Virus record (IMG/VR): IMGVR_UViG_2529292909_000014
DNA length: 6,866 nt
Reading direction: 5' to 3' (one strand)
From: a virus
Lineage: Duplodnaviria; Heunggongvirae; Uroviricota; Caudoviricetes
Part shown: one piece after another, positions 1,466-6,866 of the stretch
Layout of the letters: each line of letters opens with the position of its first letter
Numbering within the stretch: position 1 is the first letter of the stretch
Position numbers and translations under genes: made by a program
The notes under the pieces: generated by a model
The model's input: only the letters and a program-made list of their open reading frames with translations
What the model was told of the DNA's origin: nothing
Databases searched by the model: none

Positions 1466-1759
1466 ATGGACAATCATGTAACGACGAGAAATCGAAAAAT
1501 GATTGAAAATGCGGAAATCTATAATGATTATTTTTCCGATTATTCAGATGCCTGCAAATACAGTTCGAGTGCGGGAGAGTTCATATGCTTCAACTTTTTT
1601 ATTAAATCTTATGTTTTTCCTCCACAGCAAGAAGATGGAGGTGTGCCACCTCCTGAAATCACTTTGCACCGTATAGCCTCCGTCTCAATGATGGAGCAAC
1701 AGGCTAATGAGCTGTATAGCATTCTGGGAACGATTCTACAAAAGCGTGAATCGGACTAA
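1466..1759 (+). CDS. Hypothetical protein, 97 aa, divergent from com-mom
   Basis: ORF with SD AAGAGG 6 nt upstream of the ATG; no recognisable motif. Confidence 0.5.
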   Translation: MDNHVTTRNRKMIENAEIYNDYFSDYSDACKYSSSAGEFICFNFFIKSYVFPPQQEDGGVPPPEITLHRIASVSMMEQQANELYSILGTILQKRESD

Positions 1760-2542: not shown

Positions 2543-4597
2543 TTACGCGTTATTCACTTCCACCACGATACTGTCAATCAGTACCGGGTAAGTCGCATTT
2601 TTAGTGATATCGGTCACGCGCAACTTGTCTGCCGTAAACGTGCCGACCGGAGACTGCGACAGCATGAATGGTGTCCCGTCCTTACCATCAATGACCGGCG
2701 TCACCTCAATACTGTTGTTACCGGCAAAACGGAAGCCCAGCGTATGCCATTCGTTATTAAATGCGCCGAATGACCCCAGCTTCGTGTTCTGCGCCGTGTT
2801 TCCTTTGTGATACATCACGTTAAGGTCTGTGGCATCGCTCTGTACGTAGAACGATGCCAGCAGGTTATGACCGGCATTTCCTTCCAGAGTAACCCCTTGC
2901 GGCAGGGCAGAAACCGGCCAGTACAGCGCCAGTGCGTACTGATTAGCCGTAAGCGCGCCATCGAGTTTAAAACGACAACTGACAAGACCACCTTTACCCA
3001 GCAGGTCCGCACCATTACCAGCATCATGCTCAAGGTACCAGGGGGCTCTTCCTGTTTCCTTGGTCAGTTTCATTGCCTTACCCCCGCTGGCTCCGGCATC
3101 ATCCACGATTTGAGCCTTGCCACCTCCGGCAGCCCAACCCTGTGGTGTCAACCGTCCTTCAGACTCAGATGCCCGGTAAGCAAATAGCGTACTCATCGTC
3201 GTGGTGTCTGCGGGTGGCGTGGACGGTTTTGATGGTGTATCAGGTGACGGCTTCTCATCCGGTGGTGTCACGGTCTGCCCGCGCATCAGTTCAGCCGTGC
3301 GCCCTGCATGGAGCATAATAGCTGAGGCCAGACGGTCTGAAATGACGCCCCTGCGTGCCCATGAGCTGAAATGGCTGTCACGCTGTGTCGAAACAAAACT
3401 GCCCTGGGTTCGGGATGCTGCACCGTAATACCCGACAGCCACAATATCCGGGTCTTCCGCCGGAGCATTCGTTGGCGTGCTCTGTCCATTCTCATCCGTC
3501 AGGAACGGTACAAAGAAAATTTTCTGTGCTTCCTTGCCTTTGTAGCCACCGTATACTGCCTCATATTTATCGGTGCCAGCGTTTTTCCAGTAATACGTGG
3601 TATCACCGCAAATCCACGGCACCGTGGTGGCATTTCCACTCACGCACTGCGCAGCAAGCGGAGCCAGGTCAGTTCTGAACTGCTGAACCATGGCCGTGAA
3701 TAAACTATTATGCTGCTGGCTTCCTGAGGCAAGGTCTGCCTCTCCCTGCATCCAGACCACAGCCAGAAGTTTGTTTTCGGGTTTTTCGCCAGCGCGACTT
3801 TGGTGCGGCTTACCAGGTCCTGATACAGAGGTTTACCGGCCCCCCAGCGTGAAGAATCAGCGGAAGCACCGCTGGCCTCACTGAATGAGCCGTCGGCTCC
3901 AGTGGTGAATGCTGACCCGCCACGACAACAGGGCACCAGAAGTATCCCGGCATTCTGTGGGATATAGGGAAGCAGTTTTTTGGCAATATGCAACCCCTGA
4001 CCGACAGTTCCCGTACTGGCCTTTTGCCAGATCAGCTTTCGGGTGGTTTATCCCGCTCATATCCTGAACATCATGCAGGCAGTGGTCTGCCGGAATGATG
4101 TCGTTGTATGTACACGACGTACCGTTGGGCGTTACCGTACTGCGGCGTGCCAGTTGCTTAATGCGTGGGTCCGGGCGGTCAAACGAATCCGGTAACGGCA
4201 GCCCCTCGCCGTAGGCCATGCCATTTGACTGACCCGCGAGAATGACAACAAAGTAATATTCCGGCTCTGAACTGCTGCCATTCGTGCTACCGGAAGGCCC
4301 GGCGTTATCCGGTGCATTCCAGTCGGAGGGCGTGAGCGTTCCGGCCACGTCAGATGTGATTGGAATGATGCCAGTCACGCCTGAACTGGTGATTTCTGCA
4401 CTGGGATTACCGGATACCGGCATTACCCATAATGGCTCTTTCGTGCTGAAGCGGATCACGCAGTCTGCGAAGGTGATCCCCCCTTTATTACCCGAAGGGC
4501 GGAAAGGGCTTTCAATAAATGCCACCGTGCCACCGGCAACCTTGACTGAAAACTCTCCGGGCATGGCGGAGAGCATTTTCCACTTGGAGTCTGACAT
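2543..4597 (-). pseudogene. NanS-like sialate O-acetylesterase (SGNH/SASA family) with N- and C-terminal extensions; reading frame broken twice
   Basis: Track ORFs 3878..4597, 3640..3993 and 2543..3760 join into one protein carrying NanS-type motifs (ILAGQSNGMAYGEGLPLPD, VPCCRGGSAFT, VVWMQGEADL, GDTTYYWK, NAPAEDPD, SHFSSWARRGVISDR). Frame breaks: a 1-bp insertion near 4008-4012 and a 1-bp deletion in the T-run 3774-3777. Confidence 0.8.
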
Positions 4598-4672
4598 CGT
4601 CTTTTCTGCCTGTTTCTGAATTAAACAGAGTCAGAATAGCGACCGCTGAAAAATATGTGTTTTGCGGAAATT

Positions 4673-4702
4673 CAAAAAAGCGTCACGGTACTTTTGGTGA
4701 CG
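4673..4702 (-). terminator. Possible terminator at the end of the invertase gene: CGTCAC-N10-GTGACG followed by CTTTTTTG
   Basis: 6-bp stem overlapping the invertase stop codon, followed by a U6 tract on the minus strand; the stem is short. Confidence 0.35.
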
Positions 4703-5253
4703 GAGCTGGTGAGGCAGGAAAATAACGATAAAGGGTGGAAAGGCCAATATCAAATATCAGTGCGATTTGTTTACGGGACTCGCCATTAGCCAGCAAACGG
4801 GCGATTTGCTCCCGCTCTTTCTCTGTCAGTTTCTGAGGTCTGCCGCCATGACGCCCTGAGCACGGGCAGCAGCAAGACCCGCGCGTGTACGTTCAATAAT
4901 GAGTTCCCGCTCCATTTCCGCCAGCGCGCCCATTATATGGAAAAAGAAACGTCCCATGGGAGTGGATGTATCAATATTGTCCGTAATGCTGCGGAAGTTA
5001 ACGCCGCGTTGCCGGAGTTCTTCTGTTAAAAGGACAAGGTGCTGCATACTGCGTCCAAGGCGATCCAGTTTCCAGACCAGCAGGGTATCCCCTGGCCGGA
5101 GTCGCTTTAATGCGCGTTTAAGTCCGGGACGCTCCCTTGTCTTACCGCTTATTCTGTCTTCGAAAACAGCTCACATCCTGCACATTCCAGCGCATTTCTT
5201 TGTAGCGCCGTATTCTGGTCATTTGTTGACACCCTGATATACCCAATCAGCAT
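4683..5253 (-). pseudogene. Hin/Gin/Pin/Cin-family serine DNA invertase, disrupted by two 1-bp deletions
   Basis: Three frames read MLIGYIRVSTNDQNTALQRNALECAGCE / FEDRISGKTRERPGLKRALKRLRPGDTLLVWKLDRLGRSMQHL...FFFHIMGALAEMERELIIERTRAGLAAARAQG / GRHGGRPQKLTEKEREQIARLLANG..., together a full-length invertase. Deletions lie near 5161-5170 and 4850-4860. SD AAGGA upstream of ATG 5253. Confidence 0.85.
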
Positions 5254-5318
5254 ACGATTTCCTTATTATAAAAAGCCGGAATTGTCGCATGAGGAATAAA
5301 ACAGAGTTAATCCTGGCT

Positions 5319-5344
5319 TTCCTGAAAACCTCGGTTTACGGGAA
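5319..5344. other. Invertase crossover site, left: TTCCTGAAAACC-TC-GGTTTACGGGAA
   Basis: 26-bp imperfect palindrome; the left half differs from the hixL half-site TTCTTGAAAACC at one position and the whole site resembles gix. It lies 66 bp upstream of the invertase start. Confidence 0.7.
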
Positions 5345-5400
5345 ACGGTAAACAGGGCGGCGAATGCTCTGCCATCGGACGGCACCGCCGTTGCCGCGAA
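5333..5400. repeat. Inverted repeat, left arm (68 bp, one mismatch to the right arm)
   Basis: The reverse complement of 6580..6647 matches 5333..5400 except position 5368; patchy similarity continues inward to about 5451. Confidence 0.85.
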
Positions 5401-5692
5401 TAGACTCGCCACCCCAAGAAATATTAATGGGGTTCCCTTTGACGGGACGAAGGACATAAACATCACTTCTGGTATAACACAGCAGGATGCGGATTCCCGA
5501 TATATCCAGGATATCAGGCTGGGAGCAGAGAACAGGCAGGTAATGTACGGTGGGGCATATTACTCTGCGTACGGTAATGTTATGGCAGGCCTGCAGATTG
5601 ACAGTAAAGTTGATGCTTCAAACGATTTTATAGCATTCAGACCCCTGCAAAAATTAGTCGGAGGTACATGGATTACGGTATCTCAGTTATAA
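5342..5692 (+). CDS. Silent alternative tail-fibre C-terminal cassette (no start codon; expressible only after inversion fuses it to the constant part)
   Basis: Plus-strand frame is open from the crossover site to TAA 5690-5692 and encodes ...[40 protein letters not shown]...; no ATG or RBS at its 5' end; followed 51 bp later by tfa. Confidence 0.65.
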   Translation, partial: ETVNRAANALPSDGTAVAANRLATPRNINGVPFDGTKDINITSGITQQDADSRYIQDIRLGAENRQVMYGGAYYSAYGNVMAGLQIDSKVDASNDFIAFRPLQKLVGGTWITVSQL

Positions 5693-5743
5693 ATAGTCAG
5701 TAAATAATATATTTTAAAACAGATTTATTTCCAGGAGGATTTT

Positions 5744-6265
5744 ATGGAACTAAAAAATATAACCCGTTATTATCCTGAAAATATGCCATATGGTAATAAT
5801 GTTCAGTATTTCCAGAGTGAAGATGGTAAGGATTTCTACGAATCCCTGCCATTATTCACCAAAAAATATAAACTTTGCATAACACCTGACAGCGGCGTTA
5901 TCTGCTCAATATCACAGGACGCCTCGGCGCTGTATCCTGCGGGGTTTTCTGTGGTTGAGGTCGATGAACTCCCTGAAGGCACGGATATTTCAGGAAACTG
6001 GAAGTTTGATAATGGCATAATCTCCCGTATTCCGGTTAACTACGCAAGAAAACTGGAAGCAATGCGCCAGTCATATCTTAATCAGGCATATGAAAAAATT
6101 AATGACTGGAGAACGGAGCTACAACTGGGCACCATCAGCGATGAAGACAGAGCAGCACTTACCCAATGGATGGCATACATCAGTCAGGTGAAGAAAATGG
6201 AACTACCCGCCATTAAAACAGAAGCTGAATTTAACGCCATTAAATGGCCTGAGCAGCCACAGTAA
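5744..6265 (+). CDS. Tail-fibre assembly protein (Tfa/U family), 173 aa
   Basis: SD CAGGAGGA 6 nt upstream of the ATG; C-terminal ...DWRTELQLGTISDEDRAALTQWMAYISQV...IKWPEQP fits the conserved Tfa C-terminal pattern. Confidence 0.85.
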   Translation: MELKNITRYYPENMPYGNNVQYFQSEDGKDFYESLPLFTKKYKLCITPDSGVICSISQDASALYPAGFSVVEVDELPEGTDISGNWKFDNGIISRIPVNYARKLEAMRQSYLNQAYEKINDWRTELQLGTISDEDRAALTQWMAYISQVKKMELPAIKTEAEFNAIKWPEQPQ

Positions 6266-6268
6266 TAA

Positions 6269-6288
6269 AGAAGGCCGGAAGGCCTTCT
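6269..6288. terminator. Hairpin AGAAGGCC-GGAA-GGCCTTCT between the convergent tfa and tail-fibre genes
   Basis: 8-bp stem with a tetraloop; minus-strand downstream sequence is U-rich (UUAUUACU); no clean U-tract on the plus strand. Confidence 0.45.
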
Positions 6289-6296
6289 GAATATCA

Positions 6297-6866
6297 TTAT
6301 ATACTTGCAGCCGTCACCCATGCTCCATTTAACAGATACTGCAACGGCCGGTAATACACGCCGCCGACGTTATCTGCCGTATTCTTACCGACATCCTGTA
6401 CTTTAATTCCGGTAAGAACATTGCCGCCCCCCAGATTCAGATCCCAGCTTTCCCATGTTCCGGGCATATGTGCGGTCACCGACCCCAGTCTTATGGCGGT
6501 TACTGTTCCTGATGAGATAGTGATATCCTGCGTCCCGTCAAAGGGAACACCATTAATTGTGTGGGCATTTGCCAGCCTGTTCGCGGCAACGGCGGTGCCG
6601 TCCGATGGCAGGGCATTCGCCGCCCTGTTTACCGTTTCCCGTAAACCGACGTTATCGATAAAAGCCCCTTTATCCGGAATGTCTGCGCCGTTCTGCTCCC
6701 TGCGCAGGTAACGGTTATCACCTTCGCTTTTGCTGTAAACATCCAGATTATTACGGGCGGTTCCCTTATTCTCCAGGTCGGCGAGATTCTGATCCTTCGC
6801 CAGGGCATTAACGTCAGCGGGACCAAGACCGTTTTTTGTGGCAAGCGTCCCCAGACCAAGATAACC
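6297..6866 (-). CDS. Tail-fibre protein, 3' part (5' end beyond the window), carrying the currently expressed tip
   Basis: Minus-strand frame is open from the window edge to TAA 6297-6299: [54 protein letters not shown]...[42 protein letters not shown]...AASI. Typical tail-fibre motifs; the crossover site is embedded at codons GLRE. Confidence 0.85.
6580..6647. repeat. Inverted repeat, right arm (68 bp)
   Basis: Reverse complement of 5333..5400 with one mismatch. Confidence 0.85.
6636..6661. other. Invertase crossover site, right: TTCCCGTAAACC-GA-CGTTATCGATAA
   Basis: Inner half is identical to the left site's inner half in inverted orientation and the core dinucleotide is complementary; the outer half has diverged. 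Lies inside the tail-fibre coding sequence. Confidence 0.65.

Follow-up and report, generated by a model that had tools for sequence, protein, structure and literature searches.

Serine invertases drive a well-described group of phage switches that swap the C-termini of tail fibres, among them the G segment of Mu (invertase Gin, crossover sites gix, genes S, U, U' and S'), the C segment of P1 (Cin/cix) and the P segment of e14 (Pin). For fibre tips of the Mu, P2 and P1 type, the general assumption is that a chaperone encoded immediately downstream is required. An earlier note on the DNA described here held that the Mu and P1 segments have such an assembly gene for each orientation, and that is so: Mu has U and U', and two tail-fibre assembly (tfa) genes are present in a P1-like phage. 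The e14 segment likewise has two tfa genes, one per orientation. Here we describe an invertible segment with two tips and a single tfa, located in a 6,866-nt stretch of IMG/VR virus record IMGVR_UViG_2529292909_000014 (the window, meaning the whole stretch analysed). By sequence, the window is the right end of a Mu-like E. coli prophage.

The single-tfa layout turned out to be shared by every locus that we annotated in its lineage. A widespread lineage thus manages two tips with one chaperone gene, which points in the wrong direction in the orientation seen more often. Our preferred reading, to which we assign a probability of roughly 0.55, is that one generalist Tfa is shared by both tips.

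Layout of the segment and its recurrence

The arrangement set out in the earlier note, a segment with two tips and one tfa, was borne out, with every element lying where it had been placed. The invertible segment between the crossover sites is ~1.3 kb long and contains two fibre-tip cassettes and the single tfa. From left to right, the features of the segment and its borders are:

4683-5253, minus strand: Gin-type serine invertase gene (gin), transcribed away from the segment and broken by homopolymer indels at 4853 and 5162
5319-5344: crossover site near the invertase gene, TTCCTGAAAACC-TC-GGTTTACGGGAA
5331-5692, plus strand: tip B cassette, whose frame stays open from the crossover up to the stop at 5690-5692; lacking a start codon, it is silent and becomes the fibre C-terminus after inversion
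5693-5743, plus strand: 51-nt spacer from the tip B stop to the tfa start, ~22% G+C, with AGGAGG at 5733-5738, 5 nt before the ATG
5744-6265, plus strand: sole tail-fibre assembly gene, tfa, 173 aa, matching Pfam Caudo_TAP and Mu U
6269-6288: 8-bp hairpin (loop of 4 nt) separating tip A from the convergent tfa, listed as terminator-like on the minus strand; also in L006, one of the locked relatives described below
6297-6649, minus strand: tip A cassette, in frame with the fibre constant part and hence the expressed tip; its truly variable part is ~6300-6515 (72 aa)
6636-6661: crossover site near the fibre constant part, TTCCCGTAAACC-GA-CGTTATCGATAA
6650-6866, minus strand: fibre constant part (Sc), outside the segment and continuing past the right end of the window; residues 105 to ~176 of the 293-aa fibre

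The two crossover sites are 26-bp gix-like sequences in inverse orientation, with identical inner half-sites and matching central dinucleotides (TC/GA), and both align almost base for base with Mu gix. They lie at the outer ends of an 86-nt inverted repeat (5324-5409 and 6571-6656, 93% complementary), from which a weaker 50-nt inverted repeat (82%) continues. Pfam assigns HTH_7 and Resolvase (E=1.6e-51) domains to the intact 190-aa invertase of a relative, and the protein shares 74% identity with Mu Gin. Inverting positions 5331-6649 in silico yielded a sequence colinear with that of strain NCCP 13983 for 2266 nt (99.65% identity). The inversion evidently happens in nature, since a strain this similar carries exactly the flipped form.

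The minus-strand fibre frame is unbroken from 6866 to the stop at 6297-6299. Full-length fibres are 293 aa in a near-identical copy of the prophage in strain JE86-ST05 (L001; WP_000469166) and 296 aa in a flipped relative (L002), where tip B precedes tfa. Residues 1-191 of WP_000469166 align to residues 1-184 of Mu S (PDB 5YVQ/8JU3; E ~1e-44), and the fibre's last ~70 residues match the very C-terminal ends of Mu S and S', so the fibre amounts to a Mu fibre minus the long shaft. Because ~45 residues just inside the crossover are common to both cassettes, only ~70-75 residues change upon inversion. Tip A has a match at the C-terminal end of the phiTE short tail fibre (9CUY; E=1e-10) and weaker ones in Mu S and S'; tip B matches the C-terminus of Mu S (E=6e-8). 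Pfam returned no family in either fibre.

The Tfa protein matches Caudo_TAP (PF02413) over residues 55-173 (E=4.8e-19; 69.2 bits against a cut-off of 22.1), and in a sequence match to Mu U (PDB 5YVQ chain B; E=4e-16) its residues 18-153 correspond to 24-164. Its gene is co-directional with tip B after the 51-nt gap and convergent to tip A, whose stop lies 31 nt from the 3' end of tfa, a distance mostly taken up by the hairpin. This hairpin looks like a terminator of the fibre transcript, because a T-rich tail follows it on the minus strand. The earlier note had allowed that a corrected sequence might reveal a tfa-like open reading frame downstream of the expressed tip on the minus strand. We looked for one and found none of tfa size: in most alleles the longest open stretch antisense to tfa is no more than 67 codons, with lengths that are not conserved, which rules out a hidden second tfa there.

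We annotated 42 loci of the Sp18-like, Mu-like lineage by tblastn, drawing on genomes and IMG/VR and including O157:H7. A single tfa was present in all 42; 25 loci express tip A and nine tip B, while eight have no gin and are locked on tip A. The allele set of the window was found in 19 of 5,426 complete E. coli genomes, all near-identical, and a diverged set in 182, O157:H7 among them; dozens of IMG/VR contigs have the same layout. The diverged set is also present in Mu-like phages inserted in Stx phages of clonal complex 119 (CC119). Such recurrence shows that the layout is no assembly artefact.

The slot without tfa (slot A) is occupied by one of two tip alleles, A1 (that of the window) and A2, which are 46% identical. 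The slot preceding tfa (slot B) has three, B1 (that of the window), B3 (like the Mu S tip) and B4, with 26-40% identity among them. The slot A tips form a subfamily of their own, with the motif VQ(D/E)xGxxxADNxGGVYYRP.

Both tips and tfa are under purifying selection. Ratios of non-synonymous to synonymous substitution rates (dN/dS) were 0.05-0.18 for the slot A tips, at a synonymous divergence (dS) of 0.2 to >1, and 0.12-0.13 for B4, the only B allele diverged enough to measure. For tfa the ratios were 0.13-0.23, and the gene is intact wherever the locus covers it completely. The low ratios of tip A mark a working gene, not a relic. The comparison with homologous inversion regions that the earlier note had proposed thus returned a lineage that shares the single-tfa layout and in which, judged by selection, both tips are functional. 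We interpret the asymmetry as a fixed, selected design of the lineage, and the notion that it might be an oddity of this one copy is not supported. Loss of a second tfa, another explanation raised at the outset, could have happened only long ago, at the base of the lineage, as no relative within it has two.

Which tip uses the single Tfa

If one generalist Tfa is shared by both tips, the switch could work as follows. The Gin-type invertase would recombine the two gix sites and flip the 1.3-kb segment, thereby giving the constant N-terminus of the fibre either tip A or tip B. With tip B expressed, tfa would be co-transcribed with it. In the tip A state, which is that of the window, tfa faces away from the late operon and would be made from a weak start of its own, for which the unusually long spacer with its own ribosome-binding site is the candidate place. 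The high genome copy number reached in Mu-type replication could let a weak start suffice. We infer, then, that tip A needs Tfa and that tfa is expressed independently of orientation.

The partners of related tips in other phages point to such a need. A-type tips, which share the slot A motif, were found in SfMu, P2-like fiAA91-ss, a P1-like phage, Cronobacter phage CR8, TH18 and jumbo phage A4. In six of six, a co-directional gene starts 2-18 nt after the stop of the fibre gene; five of these genes carry the annotation tfa, 'tail fibers protein' or chaperone, and the one in TH18 is listed as a 'hypothetical protein'. The slot A tips are 43-56% identical to these Tfa-linked tips, with no additional domain or insertion. 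The alignments of tip A with Mu S, Mu S' and the phiTE short fibre also reach the last residue of those proteins or stop at most two residues short of it, leaving no room for an extra domain. An intramolecular chaperone of the Peptidase_S74 type in tip A is ruled out, as there is neither a Pfam family nor any residue past the homologous ends. The earlier note had suggested that this tip might fold without a dedicated chaperone; the built-in version of that idea falls with the missing domain, and chaperone-free folding is disfavoured by the co-directional downstream genes in the six phages.

The window's Tfa is itself of a kind that partners A-type tips elsewhere, though here it stands behind tip B. 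The nearest relative of its N-domain in an isolated phage is 'tail2' of Rac-SA53 (61% identical), which starts 2 nt after a fibre with an A2-type tip (60% identical to A2), and the CR8 Tfa (39% identical) also sits behind an A-type tip. The phiTE Tfa is 38% identical and the phiTE short fibre has an A-type tip; these two were matched separately, not as a gene pair. Conversely, the SfMu Tfa shares 86% of its N-domain and 96% of its C-domain residues with Mu U, but sits behind an A-type tip only 51% identical to the Mu S tip, and the Mu S-like B3 tip is paired in our lineage with a Tfa only ~34% identical to Mu U. Judging from these gene pairings, one Tfa type can serve different tips. For Mu, a passage of PMC9608196, citing North et al. 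2019, states that Tfa's N-terminal domain binds the fibre tip. Across all observed combinations of A and B alleles in our loci the Tfa N-domain is 73-89% identical; being near-constant across unrelated tips, it cannot be specific to a single one.

As to how tfa might be expressed in the tip A orientation, the spacer between tip and tfa is 51-121 nt in all single-tfa loci of the lineage, and 69 nt in a Mu-like prophage of Citrobacter braakii (L061; compared below), where it holds two sigma-70 promoter-like hits. Classical fibre-tfa pairs overlap or are separated by at most 18 nt. Since a single tfa and a long spacer coincide in two lineages, we place the candidate independent start of tfa in the spacer.

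A further set of observations comes from the eight locked loci (L006, L021, L022 and L024-L028; mouse strain M3 is included). They have lost most of gin, a crossover site and most of the B4 tip through a deletion that runs from inside gin to inside tip B (L006:2998-3303). An origin by invertase action is ruled out for these derivatives, as the deletion ends are not at the crossover site. All eight loci, representing six alleles, keep a fibre with tip A or A2 convergent to an intact tfa. The deletion junction has diverged by 3-5% and the tip B remnant has decayed; tfa is intact, which is weakly consistent with a need for it when only tip A can be made.

Several results weigh against a Tfa shared by both tips and expressed in both orientations. 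A sigma-70 scan of the plus strand from 5200 to 6720 gave no site, and what the scan returned in other alleles, L004 and L007 among them, did not agree. From the regions upstream of lys, protease and DUF6645 we derived a late-promoter pattern for the prophage, TYCCGCAAA, 22-23 nt, TAYKCT; it recurs upstream of tfa only with two mismatches (5643-5679; chance p ~0.04) and is missing from other alleles. Within this lineage A-type tips are confined to the slot without tfa, a distribution that fits a Tfa-independent tip too. In the locked loci the synonymous divergence of tfa (0.16-0.43) is far above the 3-5% of the adjacent non-coding junction, so that the tfa alleles may be recombination imports, which blurs the signal of selection on tfa among the locked loci. 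Of the three options in the earlier note, an own promoter of tfa at 5693-5743 is the one favoured by the indirect evidence, namely the long spacer and its strong ribosome-binding site. No convincing promoter emerged, however: there is no sigma-70 consensus in that interval, the window having no plus-strand match, and the match before tfa to the prophage's own late-promoter type is weak and unconserved.

Two other features upstream of tfa were noted. In the commonest tfa allele group (L003, L004, L006 and others), two small conserved hairpins lie in the spacer ~90 nt upstream of the gene, CTGAAATA...TATTTCAG and TTGCCTGTATATGGCAA; they are kept in the locked derivatives. A promoter-like TGGACA, 17 nt, CATATT is present at the deletion junction of the locked loci, ~140 nt upstream of tfa.

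A different account of the same segment is that tip A folds without Tfa, Tfa being the chaperone of tip B and possibly a cap retained on the fibre that aids host binding, so that inversion would toggle between capped and bare fibres. Across the 42 loci tfa is co-directional with slot B always and with slot A never, the two scans found no promoter for it, and the slot A tips make up a distinct subfamily. Moreover, a passage of PMC9608196, citing North et al. 2019, reports that Mu Tfa stays on the mature fibre and contributes to receptor recognition, and for the solved Mu S' fibre (entry 8JU3) the sequence search returned no Tfa chain. Set against these points are the genes placed just downstream of A-type tips in all six other phages, the fact that Rac-SA53 and CR8 couple this very Tfa type to A-type tips, the lack of anything extra in the slot A tips relative to their Tfa-linked relatives, and the intact tfa of derivatives that can make tip A only. 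We treat a Tfa-independent tip A as the main rival reading, tentative and on the unlikely side. The more elaborate claim that inversion is a two-level host-range switch, between a Tfa-capped fibre with tip B and a bare, self-folding fibre with tip A, we consider doubtful; were it true, bare tip A would be a natural example of a Mu-type tip, minimal and self-folding, that needs no chaperone.

Tip A might instead need Tfa and receive it in trans from another prophage of the same cell. Tfa proteins are indeed paired with different tip types across phages, and E. coli genomes usually carry several prophages with tfa genes. Joint induction of other prophages with a Mu-like phage is, however, not to be expected, a new host may have none, and supply in trans leaves the locked derivatives' own tfa unexplained, all of which makes this an improbable solution. 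Most improbable, in our judgement, is that the segment is a decaying remnant in which the second tfa was lost and either tip A particles are non-infectious or the segment is non-functional. The invertase and neighbouring genes do look frameshifted in the window, and among 50,697 phage records no isolated phage has this layout, save the copies inserted in Stx phages. But the six window indels are all single-base homopolymer changes relative to otherwise 99.9%-identical relatives with intact genes, tip A is under strong purifying selection, both orientations are found in nature, and derivatives locked on tip A have diversified and persist. Passages of PMC10132054 and PMC2669165 add that insertion sites vary among CC119 strains, consistent with transposition-dependent replication, and that Sp18 is packaged.

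If a generalist Tfa does serve both tips, it would be a natural broad-range fibre chaperone, useful for engineering the host range of phages and tailocins, and it would imply a chaperone promoter that works regardless of segment orientation.

The surrounding prophage and the quality of its sequence

On the minus strand, read from right to left, the window comprises:

6866-6297: 3' part of the fibre gene, followed by the rest of the invertible segment
5253-4683: gin
4597-2543: DUF6645/SASA esterase gene, followed by two small genes
1254-318: com/mom

The near-identical copy in JE86-ST05 is a complete 38-kb prophage with genes for Mu transposase A and B, Gam, a Mor/C-type activator, lysozyme, head, tail and baseplate. 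By way of the O157:H7 and CC119 copies, the prophage appears to belong to the same lineage as Sp18 of O157:H7 Sakai. A passage of PMC10132054 describes the CC119 Mu-like phages as resembling Sp18; according to a passage of PMC2669165, Sp18 of O157 Sakai is predicted to be intact, is efficiently packaged and is the likely source of Mu-like particles. The single tfa goes unmentioned in the passages of these two papers, and in the other literature passages retrieved.

Compared with the 99.9%-identical JE86-ST05 copy, the window has 3 substitutions and 6 single-base indels. The indels are at 1050, 2376, 3773, 4008, 4853 and 5162, every one within a homopolymer run. Two disrupt gin and two the DUF6645 gene, and one falls in com/mom; the genes of relatives are intact. 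With all indels in homopolymers and few substitutions, the pattern is typical of sequencing error and looks like that rather than true pseudogenes. If the indels were real, this copy would no longer be able to invert by itself.

The gene at 2543-4597 on the minus strand, between gin and com/mom, encodes a 684-aa protein with a SASA carbohydrate-esterase domain and DUF6645. Before it, at 4633-4669 (minus strand), is the motif TTCCGCAAA, 22 nt, TATTCT, and the same pattern precedes the genes for lysozyme and protease of the full prophage, which makes it probable that this gene is a late one. Two loci, L063:5001-7848 and L065:5001-6979, have neither invertase nor segment; their longer, histidine-rich fibre is immediately followed by a co-directional tfa of 241-242 aa and then by a DUF6645 gene. 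A 97-aa open reading frame at 1466-1759 (plus strand) runs counter to every neighbouring gene; it is placed between com and the DUF826 gene, and in relatives it is annotated as a hypothetical protein (WP_000571916). In L094 (21301-21380), RefSeq annotates a 'tRNA-OTHER' inside the prophage, on the opposite strand between the virion morphogenesis and minor head protein genes. No Rfam family matched anywhere in the window.

Comparison with known systems

Much is shared with the G segment of Mu. The N-terminus of the fibre is homologous, the invertases are similar to the extent given above, and the crossover sequence is nearly the same. In both, the invertase gene borders the segment on its outer side and reads away from it, com and mom being located farther along, and the final ~70 residues of Mu S and S' have homologues in both tips of the window. 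The Mu segment, however, is 3 kb long against 1.3 kb here, its variable tips are ~330 aa against ~70 aa, and its two tfa genes follow their tips after 2-5 nt, where the one tfa here follows after 51-121 nt. Mu also has nothing at the place where the window has the DUF6645/SASA esterase gene, between gin and com/mom. Two prophages, the Mu prophage of E2348/69 (PMC4272514) and the one in CP066032 (PMC9881135), were considered as published proof of inversion and set aside, since both proved to be of the classical two-tfa Mu type and not of this lineage. Within the lineage, an O157:H7 prophage (L103) and a CC119 copy (L007) match the window's single-tfa layout exactly but have tips A2/B4 instead of A1/B1.

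The P1 and e14 segments resemble the one described here as serine-invertase switches of fibre C-termini. The P1-like phage in our comparison even has an A-type tip; unlike the window, it has one tfa for each orientation, and its invertase gene points towards the segment. The closest relatives of the Tfa N-domain occur in Rac-SA53 (61%; tail2 of the tail1/tail2 pair) and in the Certrevirus phages CR8, CR3 and phiTE (38-40%). These fibre and tfa genes are not invertible, and in Rac-SA53 and CR8 tfa is tightly coupled (2-5 nt) to, and co-directional with, an A-type tip.

The Mu-like prophage of Citrobacter braakii ATCC 51113 (L008, which is L061:5001-8871) is similar in design, with an invertible segment, one tfa, a convergent orphan tip and the 69-nt spacer. 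A perfect 17-bp hairpin, strong and bidirectional, lies between its convergent genes. It differs in that its tfa is U'-like and stands behind an A-type tip, its orphan tip is of another type, and its expressed 472-aa fibre has no tfa. A close relative of this prophage, L056, has the classical two tfa genes, tightly coupled. The segment in the window, for its part, is a variant of the well-known host-range switch of the G-segment type, with one tfa instead of two.

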